This document shows positions 6,001 to 12,000 of a stretch of 15,927 nucleotides of DNA, piece by piece; position 1 is the first letter of the stretch, and every line of letters starts with the position of its first letter. Where the stretch lies: the NCBI GenBank assembly GCA_038886995.1, contig JAWALG010000026.1:1-15927 (forward strand), in the 5' to 3' direction. Source of the stretch: Candidatus Iainarchaeum sp. (lineage in GTDB: Archaea > Iainarchaeota > Iainarchaeia > Iainarchaeales > DTGL01). The position numbers are program-made.

Positions 6001-9000
6001 GCATATCTGCTTTGGTTCAATACCGATTTCATAGTTTCCCAAAATAGCTTGTGTTGTAATAGTAACATAACCATCACTTCTTGAGAACTTTATTTTGCCA
6101 GCAAATGGTGTCGACTTGGATCTATGAGCGTTGTTAAGCACCTCTGCGATTATCTTATTTGGTTCTGAAGTAGACGGTGGCGTAATAATACCAAGAATAT
6201 AAAGAAGTATATATTGCCAAGGCAATGATGGCAGAGATGAGAAGTTGAAACGTTGAAAATGCTTGCCCTTTGGAATTCATAACATCGAGGGCAATCATGC
6301 AAAACACCAACATTTAAAAATAAATCCCACTGCTATTTAATAGTAAATTAAAGCTATCAGATTGACAAAAACAAAGAATGATGCTTTTTAGGTGTTTGAA
6401 GTGGGACTGAGGCCAGGGCGTTGTTATTCAAGCATAAAGCATAGGCCTTATACAAGGGTAGCCATAACTGTGCATGAAAAGAATTACATAGGCACAGTGC
6501 CAGCAGTTAGAATAAGGCAATTCAATATGGGAAACCCATCAATGCCTTACACTCACATAATTGATCTTATTGCTGATGAAGCAGTACAGATAAGGGACAA
6601 TGCAATAGAAGCGTTAAGGATTTCTATAAACAGATACCTAATAAGAAACATAGGCAAAGAAAACTACTTCATGCGAATAAGGGTTTTCCCACATCAGATT
6701 TTAAGGGAACATAAGCAAGCACAAGGCGCAGGCGCTGACAGGGTTTCACAAGGGATGAGCCATGCTTTTGGCAAGCCAATTGGGCGCGCCATAAGAGTAA
6801 AAAAAGGCACTATAATTTTGAGTGTGCTTGCTTTGCCGGAGCATGTAAGCTTGATTGCAAAAACACTTGAAAAAAGAGCAAAATCAAAGCTTCCATGCAG
6901 CTTAAAGGTAAAAACACATACTGATTTAAATTCAATAGGCACTTTGCCAAGAAAGGCGATCATTGAAGAAAAGGTTGGGGAAGCAAAGCCAGAAGAAGAG
7001 AAAGCTCCTGAAGAGAAAGCTGAAGAAGCAGAGAAAGCTGAGGGCAAAGCAGAGGGCAAGAAAGAAGATAAGGGCGAGGCGAAGAAAGGAGAAAAAGCGG
7101 CAGAGAAGAAGTAGAAAGGACCAAGGATTCGAAGGTTACAGCCAGAACACAAATTGCTTAATCACCTATTTTAAAAGAGCGGGAGGAGGGAGTCGAACCC
7201 CCTTAATCCGGTCTGCAGCCGGATGCATGGCCGTTCTGCCACTCCCGCAGCGCTAGCTTAGATATATGTTAACTCAAACCTTTTTTTAATTTTTTTCATT
7301 TTGAATGCGTACCTTGCTTTTTTCTTCGCCTATGCTTAGCAGGTAGTTTTTTGCGCCTTCAATGTCATCAGCTTCAAGAATGCTAAAGAGCTTCCTTGCA
7401 TCAAATGCGTTGTTAAAGTTTGTTTCACTCAGTTTTTTCTCCAAGAGCTCATAGCCAAGGTCTATAACCGACTTGTTCTTTTCCTGCAGAGCTACAAGCT
7501 CAGACAACTTTTTTGAAAATGACTGCGCGAAAAAATCGGAATCTATTGATATTATTGCCTTGTTAGAATACTCATCCAATATGTCCTTTAAATCAATGCT
7601 GTCAGCAGAATGCCCTTTTGCTAGAGACCCAGAAAGCTTAATCTTTATAAGTGGCCTTTTATTATATTGTACAGAGGTTATCCTGCCAAGTACCTCGCGT
7701 AAGCGCTTTGCAACAAGGTTCTTGTCAGCGTTTTCAAATTCAAGCTTTTCATATAGGAAAGGCCTTTGATCCGGCAAAGGCAAAAACTCAAGCGCTTTGC
7801 TTTTCGTTTCCATGATGTAAATGCCTTTTGGTTTCTTAGCTTCAAGGCGCTTCATCTGTGTCAGCACCGTAGAGCCAGTGAGGATTAAATGTTTGCCATC
7901 TTGCTTTACTTCGTTTTGCCAGTGCAGGTGCCCATTGACAATTATATCAAAGCCATCTGGAAGCGCATCAATTGTTAGAGTAGCAATCATTTCATCATCA
8001 AATGGCAAAAATTCCTTGAATGACTGGTGCATCACAAGAATATTAAATGCATTGGGCTCTGGCCTTGGATCCCAAGCATGAAGAACATCTAGCGCTTTCT
8101 TTTCAGGCACGCCGCCAAGGCCATGAACAACAATGCGCTCTCCGCCTTGCTCGAAAAATGCCTTTTCTCCGTGCAAATAAGTGATAAAGCCAGCCTCCTC
8201 AAAAAGCTGCAAGTAATTAGCATAATCTCGGCTTCTGAATTCATGCGTGCCGTGTATAGCAAAAATAGGTATGCCTTGAAGCTTAAGCTCTCGCTCTTTT
8301 TCAGGACCCACCTTCTTTACAAAAACCAAGTTCTTGTTTGCATTTCTTGCTATTGAAAAAACTGAAAACGCTTGAATCAAGTGTAATGACTCAGGCACCT
8401 CTTTATCAAAGATATCCCCTGCTATAACTATTGCCTGCACGCCTTTTCCAACAGCCAAACGCATAGCAGCAGAAGCGTTTTCAAATGCCTCATTCTCACG
8501 CTCCTTCTGCGAAAACCCTATGTGAAAATCTGAGAGAAAAGCAATCTTCATAAAGTATATGGGCTCAAATTTTAATTTAAATGTATGCTGAGGGATCAAT
8601 GCTTGCAGCTTTACCTTTTACAATTTCTCCCAAATTCGAAATCTCTGCCTTTGGCATGAGCAAAAGAGGCCTAAAAACAGGAATTTTAAACTTTGCATCA
8701 AAGGCAGCATACACTAAAAGAGATTCATTTGTGATTTCACGGTCTGGTGACACAATTGCGGAAATTCCTTCTTTGCCTATAAGGCTAGCGATGTCTGAAA
8801 AGTCCGTAACCCTGAAATCGCGCCAAAGATTCCACTCAGACAATATTTTAAGTGCATCATCAAAATTGCCTGATTTATTGCATTTGACTGGAAAAACATT
8901 ACAGCCCTTGCGCATCATGAGCCATGCACAAATCAAACTATCAATTTTGTTTTTTGGGCCTTCAAAAAGCACAGCAACGTTACCTTCCACGCCTTGAGGC

Positions 9001-12000
9001 AGGCCTCCAAAGCATTTATGCTCATCAAAATAAAAAAGCAAGTTATTGTTTTCAATGTCTATGTGAAGGATATTGTCTGGGTTCGAGAGGTTGACTTTAA
9101 GGCCATAGGCCTTTACAATTTCAGCCCCAACCAAGACCTCAACATCTCTGGAAGTGAAACTGTGCTTGCCAACACGCGAGCATTCAATAGCAAAGGATCC
9201 TTTCTTTGATGAAAAAAGGCCTCTTGACATTGAAACAATATCATCAATTTTTGAGAAAGTAGCATAATTTGCAATTGTTACAGAGTGCAACCCAAAAACT
9301 TTTTTAAGAACTTCAATGCATTTTTCAGGAAACTCAGACCTTATAATTATCCTGTCACGAGTAGATCTAACTAAAGCAAAATCAATGCCGTTGCGCTTAA
9401 GAGCGCACGCCACATTGCTTCGAAGCTTTTTTACAAAATAGCGCCTTGTGGATTCGCTTTTAAGGAATATAGCCGGAGAAAATTTTGCCATTATTACCTG
9501 CTTATCAGCAATATCAGTCATAATTAGATTCTTTGCTGCAAACATTTAATTTTAAATATGTTATGCAATTCCAATTTATTTAATTTTTGTCACCACTCAA
9601 GGGGGTTGAAATATGAAAAAGTGGGTTACTGACAAAGACAGTAAAGGTTATTATTGGCCCAGCGAGGAAGCCAAGAGTTATTGCTGGGTAAAGGATGAAA
9701 AGATATATGATGAGGCCGCAAAAGACCCTGTTGCTTTTTGGGATAAAAAAGCAAAGGAAGGAATAACTTGGTTTAAGCTCTGGAATAAGACATATGTATG
9801 GAAACCGCCATACTACAAATGGTTTGTTGGTGGAAAGCTCAATGTATGCTACAACTGCGTTGATAGGCATGTAGAAGCAGGCAAAGGTAAAAAGCCCGCA
9901 ATAATATGGATACCCGAACCAATGAACGAAGAAAAAAGAGTAATAACGTTTGAAGAGCTCCATAGAGAGGTTCAGAAGTTTGCAAATGTGTTGAAAAACC
10001 TTGGTGTCAAAAAAGGCGACCGTGTAACAATATACCTTCCGATGATACCAGAAACCCAAATTGCTATGCTTGCGTGTGCAAGGATAGGTGCAATACATAG
10101 CGTTGTTTTTTCTGCATTCAGCCCGGAGTCCTTGAAGGCAAGAATAGATGACGCAAAATCAAAGGTGCTTATAACCTCTGATGGCTATTACAGAAGAGGC
10201 AAAATAGTTGAGCTAAAGAAGAATGCTGACGAAGCATTAGGTTCCAAAAGCCCAATCAAAAAGGTTGTTGTCGTAAAGCGCGCCGGCAACCAAGTAGAGA
10301 TGAAAAAAAGGCGCGACTTTTGGTGGCATGAGTTAATGGCAAAAGCTAAAGACGAATGCGCACCAACTAAGCTTGACAGTGAGCATCCATTGTTCATATT
10401 ATACACTAGCGGCACTACTGGCAAGCCAAAAGGAGTTATACATGTAAATGGTGGTTATAGTGTAATGGCTTACTGGACATCTAAGTATGTATTTGACTTA
10501 CATGATGAAGATATCTTTTGGTGCACTGCTGACATTGGTTGGGTTACAGGCCATACTTACAATTGCTATGGGATATTAGCAACTGGATCAACGCTGCTTT
10601 TCTATGAGGGAACACCGGACTTTCCAGACAAAGATAGGTGGTGGCAGATAATTGAAGAAAATAAGGTAACAATCTTTTACACCGCACCGACTGCAATAAG
10701 AATGTGCGCCCAGTGGGGCTCAGAATGGCCTGCGAAACATGACTTAAGCTCATTAAGGCTTTTGGGCACAGTTGGCGAACCAATAGACCAACAGGCCTGG
10801 ATGTGGTACTTCGAGAACATTGGCGGATCAAGATGCCCTATTGTAGACACCTGGTGGCAGACAGAAACAGGTGCAACTCTTATAACAACTCTTCCAGGGG
10901 TAGGTCCCTTTATTCCAACCGTGGCGGGAAGGCCTTTCCCTGGCGTTACTGCAGACATTGTAGATGCAGAGAAAAATAGCGTCAGCGGCGACACGGGCGG
11001 CTACCTTGTTCTTAAGAGCCCATTCCCTCCGAGCTTGCTAAGAGGGCTTTGGAAAGCGGAAAAGAAATATATTGAAACTTATTGGCTTAGCTATGACAAA
11101 GAATTCTATTCAACAAATGACGGTGCAAGGCGTGTTGACAACAAATACATAAGGATAACTGGCAGGGTTGATGATGTCATGAACGTCTCAGGACACAGGA
11201 TATCAACTGCTGAGATTGAAAATGCCATAGCATCACACAAGAATGTTGCTGAGTGTGCAGTAGTATCTCAGCCACACCCAATAAAAGGGGAAGCACCATT
11301 TGCTTTTGTTGTTCTGAAAGGAGCACAACCTAGTGAACAACTAAAGAATGAGCTTTTCGAGACAGTTAGGGTTAAGATAGGGCCTATTGCGAAGCCAGAG
11401 GTCATAGCGTTTGCAGATGCACTTCCAAAGACAAGGTCAGGCAAAATAATGCGAAGGATGTTACGTGCTCTCGTAACTAATCAGCCAATCGGCGACACAA
11501 CAACTTTGCTTAACCCGGAGAGCGTAGAACAGCTCAAAAAAGTAGTTGGATATAAGGGCTAAAGCCCTTTTATTCCCTTCTTTTTTCTTTTTTTCTTCAA
11601 TCCAAAATTACGGCAAAAAGATCTTCTTCTTTATTTTTGTGGGCAAATATTCCGTTGCAACAAACTCAAGGCTTCTATTTGCAAGTGCCTGTTGCTCTAT
11701 CCTTACTTTCATGTCCATGGCAAGCTTTAGCTCTTCTTGCCATGGCTTGTTTTGGAACCAGTCATAGGACATAAGCTCTTTTGCTCTCTTAAGGTCCATC
11801 AATTTCATCTTTTCAGTGACATTCTCAAGCTTGTAATCTTTTATGTCTTCAATTGTCATACCAATATACTTTGCGTCTGGGCATGCTAAAAGCTGAGAGT
11901 GGGCTGCCAAAGCCATTGAGCCCTGCTTTATAACGCTGTAAATGTACCAACCGTAAGGGTCGCCATCTGTGAATACGTACACAGGCAGATTGCATTCAAA

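Follow-up and report, generated by a model that had tools for sequence, protein, structure and literature searches.

The tRNA 4-thiouridine synthetase ThiI of T. maritima acts in trans across a dimer. According to PMC4041423, the THUMP and NFLD domains of subunit B deliver U8 to subunit A's PP-loop domain, the dimer interface is formed chiefly from PP-loop domain to PP-loop domain, and the THUMP-bound CCA end is required to position U8. In the same account, an NFLD loop of subunit B carrying Lys17 enters the active site of subunit A and contacts loop 289-297, and the linker residue Gly168 forms a hydrogen bond with Asp319 of the other subunit. Enzymes with neither a rhodanese domain nor a CXXC motif form a class whose mechanism is given as unsettled in PMC9825150. 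The Pyrococcus protein PH1313 crystallised as a homodimer and is found alongside several ThiI homologs, one of which, P. furiosus PF1288, is an active full-length enzyme (PMC9957541; PMC9825150). A 2023 review has the activity of PH1313 as still unconfirmed. Because PH1313 coexists with full-length ThiI homologs, at least one of them active, a dead paralog can exist without replacing ThiI. Among the papers listed by a literature search, with subscription journals and supplements outside its reach, none has a split or heteromeric ThiI in its title or abstract.

Our window, 15,927 nucleotides of Candidatus Iainarchaeum sp. DNA, encodes one candidate half of such an enzyme. A preliminary description had proposed that ThiI is here split into a THUMP protein whose PP-loop is dead, at 8580-9545 on the minus strand, and a THUMP-less PP-loop protein at C35:4139-4762(+), on a different contig. 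We refer to these as P0001 and P0002. The first of the two reads as described: its frame is open, it matches the ThiI_fer and THUMP families, and it has EGPKNKIDS in place of SGGIDS. Its features are as follows.

8577..9545, minus strand: P0001 gene, THUMP-type and ThiI-like, from the ORF list and its translation; the stop codon lies at 8577-8579
9279..9470, minus strand: ThiI_fer (NFLD) domain, residues 26-89 (PF22025, E 9.9e-10)
9024..9227, minus strand: THUMP domain, residues 107-174 (PF02926, E 2.8e-11)
8991..9008, minus strand: GGLPQG linker, residues 180-185, with G181, P183 and G185 invariant
8580..8990, minus strand: degenerate (pseudo) PP-loop pyrophosphatase domain, residues 186-322, shortened
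8937..8963, minus strand: PP-loop motif remnant EGPKNKIDS, residues 195-203, where ThiI has SGGIDS

Counted from its first ATG, the P0001 reading frame is open over 322 amino acids, and public gene callers place the start at Met9, giving 314. Met9, at position 9521, is probably the true start: residues 1-10 have a pLDDT below 50 in our AF2 model, and aligned orthologs begin around residue 13-17. The model as a whole has a mean pLDDT of 91.5 and a pTM of 0.87, and the ortholog alignment contains 21 invariant columns. Just within the N-terminal edge of the ThiI_fer domain lies Lys29 of an (S/G)E-I-x-L-K motif, invariant in 31/31 orthologs; judged from this motif, it would correspond to Lys17 of T. 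maritima ThiI. The second glycine of GGLP is equivalent to T. maritima Gly168 when counted along the alignments. By analogy with T. maritima ThiI (PMC4041423), the THUMP domain, the sole THUMP match across the 866-kb assembly, is predicted to bind the 3'-CCA end and acceptor stem of tRNA. The profile matches reported previously were reproduced: TIGR00342 aligns over profile positions 6-208 (129.5 bits, where the cut-off is 264.5), and PF02568 matches residues 186-224 through the first 38 of its 197 profile positions alone (21.5 bits).

The C-terminal domain of P0001 retains a KRGC helix end, a WN motif and an RPL motif. Residues 193-203 read LFEGPKNKIDS where the ThiI proteins of B. anthracis and T. 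maritima have LLSGGIDS (alignments to 2C5S and 4KR6), and neither the GQVxSQT loop nor the catalytic-Cys loop appears when P0001 is aligned with solved ThiIs and orthologs. SGGxDS is likewise absent from all 44 THUMP-type proteins inspected in Iainarchaeota/Diapherotrites and from 16/16 in a second DPANN phylum. The loss of the catalytic motifs and the shortened C-terminal domain would suit a functionless, decaying ThiI remnant beside a PP-loop protein that alone matters, a reading we hold to be highly improbable. The P0001 frame is unbroken in 44/44 fetched orthologs, with 21 columns invariant and a confidently modelled fold, and 125 of the best 150 proteins in a representative search are short forms without SGGxDS. 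Across three unsaturated ortholog pairs, dN/dS is 0.16, 0.12 and 0.07 for the dead domain and 0.18, 0.06 and 0.10 for the RNA-binding half. The dead domain is thus under purifying selection as strong as that on the RNA-binding half, and on intact frames, conservation and dN/dS we reject a pseudogene or frameshift.

A role for the invariant Cys215 of P0001 as a new catalytic residue or cluster ligand was considered and dropped, since intact ThiIs from the phylum and from methanogens commonly carry the same KRGC, which makes Cys215 and its motif ancestral. A scan of genome contigs returned DPANN loci only, since it used the KRGC motif as its pattern. Outside this family, many long ThiI-like proteins (356-419 aa) also have a degenerate PP-loop.

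The second protein, P0002, likewise conforms to the preliminary description. It is a 208-aa ORF with SGGIDS and a full PP-loop domain, scoring 178 bits on PF02568 and 173.8 bits over TIGR00342 positions 174-369; neither P0001 nor P0002 reaches the TIGR00342 cut-off. Profile searches found no THUMP or NFLD in P0002, so that of the two ThiI modules the RNA-binding one is present on P0001 and absent here. A hidden THUMP remnant 5' of the gene was excluded, since the P0002 start borders directly on an alaX-like ORF of the opposite strand, which leaves no space for one. The AF2 model of P0002 (pLDDT 94.6) superimposes on the 4KR6 PP-loop domain with a TMq of 0.92 and an rmsd of 1.7 Å. Cys167, the only invariant cysteine in 28/28 orthologs, aligns with Cys344 of T. 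maritima ThiI, so the catalytic cysteine of the ThiI PP-loop domain occurs in P0002 alone of the two chains. GQVSSQT is invariant among P0002 orthologs, and the Asp319 position is D, E or N (E144 in P0002). The earlier statement that the protein lacks the CxxC pair is correct: CXXC is absent from P0002 in the ortholog alignment, and Cys79 is variable. The ancestry of the P0002 clade lies in CXXC+C forms, which persist as stand-alone proteins in the second DPANN phylum, where basal relatives keep CXXC.

Neither a full-length ThiI nor a rhodanese domain was found in this assembly, which is 88.6% complete. The one other PF02568 match is weak (E 0.04) and lies in a 336-aa frame on contig C3. The genome has two class-V aminotransferase (cysteine-desulfurase-like) genes. 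NF006222 (PRK08349, a 198-aa model) gives P0002 150.9 bits, below its cut-off of 251, and scored above cut-off in 0/14 control genomes. In public records the two halves are named 'THUMP domain-containing protein' and '7-cyano-7-deazaguanine synthase'.

We then asked how the two genes are distributed. Among 201 sampled genomes of Iainarchaeota/Diapherotrites, 92 have the pair, 39 a fused ThiI, 4 the THUMP-type gene alone and 2 the PP-type gene alone; a further 2 have a long-frame ThiI matched by P0002 only, and 62 have neither or only weak matches to other families. A hand tally of 151 genomes from the second DPANN phylum gave 42 pairs, 33 fused forms, 2+1 singletons and 73 genomes with neither. 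The split pattern first seen in 24 of 44 genomes of another sample therefore recurs in larger ones, with 134 pairs against 9 singletons among the 352 genomes of both phyla, and the division of ThiI into these two proteins stands. Pair and fused ThiI never share a genome among the 352, and within Iainarchaeota/Diapherotrites no GTDB family code mixes the two states. In the second phylum, each of the 16 THUMP-type proteins fetched is accompanied by a stand-alone PP-loop protein, which falls into one of three catalytic classes (CXXC+C, single-Cys or DCC). These data support the view that P0001-type and P0002-type genes co-occur almost invariably and stand in for an intact ThiI; what is new here is that the split pair is widespread in both phyla. 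Separately, the ESM Atlas suggests clusters of ~290-aa THUMP proteins and ~200-aa PP-loop-only proteins described as 'commonest Thermoplasmatota', and stand-alone PP-loop clusters of ~200-231 aa in bacteria too; we treat both as leads only.

The two proteins could nonetheless have independent jobs. P0002 would then work unaided on tRNA or another substrate, as a sulfurtransferase or an adenylating enzyme, and P0001 would be a non-catalytic tRNA binder (a chaperone, a sensor or another enzyme's partner), as PH1313, which coexists with an active full-length enzyme and whose own activity is unconfirmed, may be. In most genomes the two genes lie apart, and the bacterial PP-loop clusters, a lead only, point the same way. 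Against this stand the ratio of pairs to singletons and the mutual exclusion of pair and fused ThiI, as well as the state of the single-gene genomes, since the 6 from Iainarchaeota/Diapherotrites are 71-88% complete and all six singletons of known completeness thus fall below 90%. P0001 is, moreover, the only THUMP protein in its genome, and P0002 has no RNA-binding module, whereas in T. maritima ThiI the CCA end must be bound by THUMP for U8 to be placed. We consider independent jobs unlikely, if the foremost of the alternatives.

Gene order is less informative about origin than had been supposed. Adjacency of the genes in relatives had been reported, and it does occur, with PP-loop gene before THUMP gene on one strand in 6/6 genomes of genus g12; this is a single genus, however (6/92 pair genomes, 6/40 named loci), with the genes unlinked in the other 86/92 pair genomes of Iainarchaeota/Diapherotrites and adjacent in 0/42 of the second phylum. 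Within Iainarchaeota/Diapherotrites the trees place each half in essentially one clade, so the co-occurrence of the pair partly reflects shared ancestry. The stand-alone PP-loop proteins are not one clade overall (AU test, p 6e-5), which implies at least two origins, and since those that partner THUMP-type proteins are of three kinds, the split architecture recurs. Grouping the 39 DPANN dead forms in a single clade is disfavoured only marginally (AU p 0.041), in a tree that does not include PH1313. For neither half do the trees point to a source lineage. The tandem duplication with complementary loss proposed in the preliminary description is accordingly not established, given adjacency in one genus only, no source lineage in the trees and at least two PP-loop origins.

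The two proteins are complementary in content: P0001 carries NFLD and THUMP, and P0002 carries SGGxDS together with the GQVxSQT and Cys loops, which puts SGGxDS on a chain separate from the THUMP-bearing one. The same holds for the contacts described across the T. maritima dimer. Elements of the B-to-A direction are conserved, namely K29 and the GGLP glycine in the THUMP-type proteins and GQVSSQT with D/E/N at the Asp319 position (E144) in the PP-type proteins, and the reciprocal A-to-B elements are lost from both. Because the kept elements match one ThiI half-site, we take a heteromeric tRNA 4-thiouridine(8) synthase, with P0001 and P0002 as subunits in the geometry of the ThiI homodimer, as the best reading, and hold it somewhat likelier to be right than wrong. 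Also in its favour are the phyletic pattern, the selection on the dead domain, the neighbouring genes in genus g12 and the recurrence of the architecture in the second phylum. Counting against it are the unlinked genes of most pair genomes, the shared ancestry behind part of the co-occurrence, the coexistence of PH1313 with an active full-length enzyme, the long degenerate ThiI-like proteins elsewhere, the missing rhodanese domain and CXXC of P0002, and the TIGR00342 scores below cut-off for both chains. P0001 would be the subunit without catalysis, holding the 3'-CCA end and acceptor stem with THUMP and NFLD, while its shrunken pseudo-PP-loop domain would serve as a dimerisation scaffold. P0002 would be the catalytic subunit, adenylating U8 by means of the SGGIDS PP-loop and the GQVSSQT loop and then transferring sulfur through Cys167, the Cys344 equivalent; the sulfur would probably come as a persulfide from the product of one of the two class-V aminotransferase genes. 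Domain content, motif losses, co-occurrence and selection on the dead domain are shown by the data; physical binding, stoichiometry, the sulfur donor and the formation of s4U at all are what we infer here, and the proposed heterodimer rests on the in-trans mechanism of T. maritima ThiI (PMC4041423) and on the motifs kept by each protein.

The proteins might also cooperate without forming a ThiI-like heterodimer, P0001 homodimers docking or handing tRNA to P0002 homodimers, either briefly or as part of a larger hetero-oligomer. In favour of this, the solved structure of PH1313 is a dimer, and both P0001 and P0002 keep the RPL region and the PP-loop fold core that make up the ThiI interface. A P0001 homodimer, however, would join two dead domains and a P0002 homodimer would have no THUMP within reach, and the motifs kept and lost better suit a one-to-one B-A half-site; we regard this arrangement as improbable, slightly more so than independent jobs. 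As a generalisation of the heteromeric synthase, archaeal dead ThiI paralogs may form a large, hitherto unrecognised family that stand-alone PP-loop sulfurtransferases obligately use as tRNA-docking subunits, the homodimer of ThiI having become an asymmetric heterodimer more than once, with CXXC+C, single-Cys and DCC partners, and PH1313 being the sole solved member. This we offer tentatively, at rather less than even confidence.

If the heteromeric synthase is real, it would assign a function to a family known only from the PH1313 structure, released in 2005, and would give the U8 sulfurases a third architecture, in which one of two chains is a pseudoenzyme. The systematic annotation of both halves would be corrected as well, because under their public names pathway surveys would score pair-bearing DPANN genomes as ThiI-negative and possibly QueC-positive. 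P0001 and P0002 would further offer a clean natural test of how a trans-acting homodimer splits into specialised subunits.

Compared with ThiI/TtuI (4KR6/4KR7, 2C5S), P0001 and P0002 sum to the same NFLD, THUMP and PP-loop pyrophosphatase domains and between them retain the GGLP linker, SGGIDS, GQVxSQT and the Cys344-equivalent cysteine; the P0001 fold matches 2C5S and 4KR7 at TMq 0.74-0.76. Unlike in ThiI, these domains are spread over two polypeptides whose genes sit on different contigs, rhodanese domain and CXXC are both lacking, and the PP-loop domain of the THUMP-bearing chain is dead and shortened, so a P0001-P0002 dimer would have at most one active site. The best match to P0001 in both sequence and fold is P. 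horikoshii PH1313 (1VBK; E 8.6e-21 over residues 21-306; TM 0.80/0.84, rmsd 2.9, 311 columns, whole length), and our new model bears out the likeness to PH1313 and ThiI reported for an earlier one. PH1313 (307 aa) has the same architecture and size and, as previously pointed out, the same dead motif: SGGxDS is missing from both proteins in the pairwise alignment, which shows WN and C-terminal PL-x3-P-E motifs in common. PH1313 is the nearest solved counterpart. It differs in having Val where the DPANN proteins have the invariant Cys215, and in Pyrococcus it does not replace ThiI as the DPANN pair does.

Heterodimers of an active and a dead paralog are familiar among eukaryotic tRNA-modifying enzymes, in ADAT2/ADAT3 (Tad2/Tad3) and Trm61/Trm6, where a heteromer replaces a bacterial-type homo-oligomer and one paralog is catalytic and the other tRNA-binding. 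If archaeal dead paralogs are indeed docking subunits, they would be a prokaryotic counterpart of ADAT2/ADAT3, arising by repeated subfunctionalisation of a trans-acting homodimer. P0001 and P0002 differ from both eukaryotic pairs in fold and reaction, and in that the active subunit, P0002, has shed all RNA-binding domains; because these are lost entirely, the division of labour between catalysis and tRNA binding would here be complete.

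The division of ThiI between two genes is real and broader than first reported. In assembly G000 (38 contigs, 865,833 bases, 88.6% complete), the gene for the THUMP-type half, P0001, lies among archaeal housekeeping genes: leucyl- and alanyl-tRNA synthetases, ribosomal protein L10e, a metallophosphoesterase, acetyl-CoA synthetase, topoisomerase VI subunits A and B, a KH protein and a RIO kinase. In public records, the nearest proteins are assigned to Candidatus Diapherotrites or Iainarchaeum, a DPANN archaeon. P0001 and the features on one side of it are as follows.

8577-9545, minus strand: P0001 gene, ORF of 322 aa, with Met9 as the start according to gene callers
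7286-8599, minus strand: calcineurin-like phosphoesterase ORF, whose listed TTG start overlaps the 3' end of the P0001 gene by 23 nt
6392-7114, plus strand: ribosomal protein L10e/uL16, with a C-terminal tail, some 45 residues long, that is almost only Glu, Lys and Ala
5701-6225, minus strand: 174-aa ORF without a Pfam match at E ≤ 1e-5
2948-5734: alanyl-tRNA synthetase ORF, listed from a far-upstream GTG start and overlapped by the 174-aa ORF

The phosphoesterase and P0001 genes are tightly packed on the same strand whichever start applies; an alternative ATG 16 codons inside the TTG start (MKIAFLSDFH) would leave a gap of about 25 nt. The true start of the alanyl-tRNA synthetase is probably further in than the listed GTG.

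Pfam places a ThiI ferredoxin-like domain at residues 26-89 of P0001 and a THUMP domain, the only one matched in the assembly, at residues 107-174. The preliminary description had called P0001's PP-loop domain dead, and we confirm this: the ThiI PP-loop family PF02568 is matched over the first 38 of its 197 positions only (residues 186-224, 21.5 bits), and the PP-loop site reads LFEGPKNKIDS as against LLSGGIDS in B. anthracis and T. maritima ThiI, with EGPKNKIDS in place of SGGIDS. The match to TIGR00342 covers profile positions 6-208 and, at 129.5 bits, falls far short of the 264.5 cut-off. By sequence, the closest solved structure is PH1313, a ThiI-like protein from P. horikoshii (1VBK; E 8.6e-21, residues 21-306), followed by the ThiIs of B. 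anthracis and T. maritima, whose matches span the N-terminal 190-220 residues. An AF2 model built with 31 orthologs (mean pLDDT 91.5, pTM 0.87) superposes on 1VBK with TM 0.80/0.84 and on 2C5S and 4KR7 with TMq 0.74-0.76. SGGxDS is missing from 44 of 44 THUMP-type proteins fetched from the first phylum (Iainarchaeota/Diapherotrites) and present in all 10 fused, one-chain ThiIs fetched.

Low dN/dS ratios (Nei-Gojobori, three ortholog pairs with unsaturated dS) of 0.16, 0.12 and 0.07 in the dead domain indicate that selection maintains it in THUMP-type proteins; the NFLD-THUMP half of the same pairs gives 0.18, 0.06 and 0.10. The alignment of 31 THUMP-type orthologs (A1) has 21 invariant columns, including K29 of the N-terminal (S/G)E-I-x-L-K motif, the GGLPxG linker residues G181, P183 and G185, G214 and C215 (KRGC), N239 (WN motif), and P293 and L294 (RPL motif). 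C215 was considered as a new catalytic residue and rejected, because intact ThiIs have the KRGC cysteine too and it is therefore inherited.

A separate THUMP-less PP-loop gene, the other half of the earlier proposal, does exist elsewhere in G000.

Contig C35, 4139-4762, plus strand: P0002, stand-alone PP-loop (PP-type) protein of 208 aa

P0002 has SGGIDS, scores 178 bits against PF02568, matches TIGR00342 positions 174-369 and aligns to T. maritima ThiI residues 176-373, with Cys167 on the catalytic Cys344; its AF2 model (pLDDT 94.6) fits onto the 4KR6 PP-loop domain with TMq 0.92 and an rmsd of 1.7 Å. Because an opposite-strand alaX-like ORF abuts the gene start, there is no THUMP remnant upstream, and no full-length ThiI was found in G000 at its 88.6% completeness. 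Across 28 PP-type orthologs (alignment A2), SGG-DS, GQVSSQT, RP and one cysteine, C167, are invariant, and the archaeal CXXC position is variable. The assembly has no rhodanese match; its candidate sulfur sources are two class-V aminotransferase (cysteine-desulfurase-like) genes, at C12:15417-16520 and C7:36284-37366. With neither a rhodanese nor CXXC, P0002 belongs to the class "neither rhodanese nor CXXC+C", for which the conclusion of PMC9825150 still calls for investigation. NCBI names P0002 and its relatives P0131, P0133, P0136, P0144, P0178, P0187, P0214 and P0217 "7-cyano-7-deazaguanine synthase" (QueC), and the THUMP-type half "THUMP domain-containing protein". P0002 scores 39 bits against TIGR00364 (QueC), versus a cut-off of 150 and its higher score for the ThiI family, and the QueC naming of PP-type proteins in DPANN genomes is probably a systematic misannotation.

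We searched 201 sampled genomes of the first phylum, G000 included, with P0001 and P0002, which matched 141 and 140 of them, respectively. Genomes were classified by script from the matches listed, with three unlisted P0001 matches left out.

Pair (separate THUMP-type and PP-type genes): 92 genomes
Fused ThiI in a single frame (about 345-508 aa): 39 genomes
Long ThiI frame matched by P0002 only: 2 genomes
THUMP-type only: 4 genomes (71, 73, 84 and 88% complete)
PP-type only: 2 genomes (both 79% complete)
Only weak matches to other THUMP or PP-loop families: 9 genomes
Nothing: 53 genomes

Pairs occur in 20 family codes and the fused form in 9 different ones; among these 201 genomes, the two forms never occur together in a genome or in a family code. 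One genome, G177, has a single THUMP-type gene and two stand-alone PP-type genes.

C39:24382-24981: PP-type gene, 223-aa frame
C57:3477-4073: PP-type gene, 218-aa frame

A second DPANN phylum (151 sampled genomes, profiles A1 and A2, rows counted by hand) has the pair in 42 genomes, the fused form in 33, the THUMP-type alone in 2, the PP-type alone in 1 and neither in 73. None of the 16 distinct short THUMP-type proteins fetched from it has SGGxDS, and their dead domain is smaller still, at about 90-120 residues. Three genomes of this phylum, labelled Woesearchaeota, each have a THUMP-type gene and a stand-alone PP-type gene (214-218 aa) and no fused ThiI. At thresholds of E ≤ 1e-3 and E ≤ 1e-30, profile A1 matched 5071 and 1148 proteins, respectively, in a library of 1.84 billion representatives; the best 150 matches comprise 125 short proteins (<345 aa) without SG[GD]xDS, 16 long ones without it, 8 long ones with it and one 222-aa fragment with it.

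On balance, we lean towards reading the pair as a two-subunit s4U8 synthase, in which a pseudoenzyme chain would dock the tRNA and a bare catalytic chain would act on it. According to PMC4041423, the functional unit of T. maritima ThiI is a homodimer in which one subunit uses its THUMP and NFLD to bind the ACCA end and acceptor stem, the NFLD-B loop Ser12-Arg21 contacts loop Ile289-Leu297 of PPase-A, Lys17-B is directed into the PPase-A active site, and linker Gly168 hydrogen-bonds Asp319 of the partner. We placed these positions on P0001 and P0002 by counting in pairwise alignments. Gly168 corresponds to the invariant G181 of P0001, the second glycine in GGLP; loop 289-297 is GQVxSQT, invariant in the P0002 family and missing from P0001; and Asp319 falls on E144 of P0002, where most orthologs have D, E or N, and on a position that is usually Pro across the THUMP-type family. 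K29 of P0001, within the conserved N-terminal Lys motif, may be the equivalent of Lys17. All the B-to-A elements appear to be retained in P0001 and P0002, respectively, and the reciprocal elements are all lost, as expected if the two proteins form a heterodimer locked in the B-A arrangement, with only one half-site active. That they cooperate in some way other than a ThiI-like heterodimer seems to us quite improbable; PH1313, which PMC9957541 reports as solved as a self-dimer, counts against the two-subunit reading.

Gene order also counts against that reading, since the pair genes are mostly unlinked. Adjacency, on the same strand with the PP-type gene first, occurs only in genus g12, in 6 of 6 genomes, where 332-412 nt separate the matched regions, and the same order is seen at 6 of 40 named loci; none of the 42 pair genomes of the second phylum has an adjacent pair. 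At one adjacent pair (genome G012), a 59-aa ORF of hydrophobic, membrane-like sequence lies between the two genes (L031:2490-2669, minus strand). In 13 genomes of family f7, the genes lie on opposite strands at a nearly constant 12-19 kb (e.g. G100:C1:382302-399210), a case of conserved synteny without adjacency, and elsewhere in the first phylum they are on separate contigs or far apart. Co-occurrence across related genomes, too, is partly inheritance. Further points on the same side are the several ThiI homologs reported in Pyrococcus (PMC9957541), P. furiosus PF1288, described in PMC9825150 as an active cluster-dependent enzyme, and the long dead paralogs that other archaea have, some of them labelled Bathyarchaeota. 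We consider it rather unlikely that P0001 and P0002 have independent functions.

In the long ThiI-like proteins (356-419 aa; P0061, P0071, P0074, P0099, P0110, P0297 and P0318 to P0379), the PP-loop is degenerate and the GQVxSQT loop is missing; some retain CXXC, and some are Bathyarchaeota-labelled "THUMP domain-containing proteins". They are another kind of dead ThiI paralog, one of full size.

The preliminary description had explained the split by tandem duplication and subsequent complementary loss, which our trees, made by quick search throughout and poorly resolved in their deep branches, neither show nor exclude. In the NFLD-THUMP tree of the first phylum, a single group (SH-aLRT 92) takes in 43 of 44 THUMP-type proteins, and in a larger set 22 of 23 from that phylum group at 98. 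The PP-domain tree unites 30 of 30 first-phylum PP-types at 94, and the two-phylum PP tree places 18 of 18, together with 8 from the second phylum, in one clade at 98. Basal stand-alone relatives of the P0002 clade retain CXXC plus the third Cys, so the P0002 lineage comes from the archaeal enzyme of the [4Fe-4S] type, with CXXC lost afterwards. Four other stand-alone PP-types fall inside the fused ThiI clade with a P-x-x-D-C-C loop (support 99), a second origin. AU tests reject a single clade of all 34 stand-alone PP-types (p 6e-5), and a single clade of all 39 THUMP-type proteins is marginally disfavoured only (p 0.041). The split architecture is thus an old one, and its catalytic side has more than one origin.

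By catalytic kind, the PP-loop proteins that stand alone as partners in the second phylum fall into three groups: CXXC+C, single Cys (GPExC) and P-x-x-D-C-C (loci L163, L165, L167 and L168 versus L156-L162 and L130 versus L128, L129, L164 and L166). Sister THUMP-type proteins can have unlike partner kinds (G338 versus G261), and this pattern suggests partner replacement.

A 2023 THUMP review, where it treats PH1313, calls it a ThiI-like protein of unconfirmed activity, and in one DPANN comparative-genomics paper ThiI appears merely in a list of thiamine genes. Judged by title and abstract, none of the papers found in searches of open journals describes a split or heteromeric ThiI.
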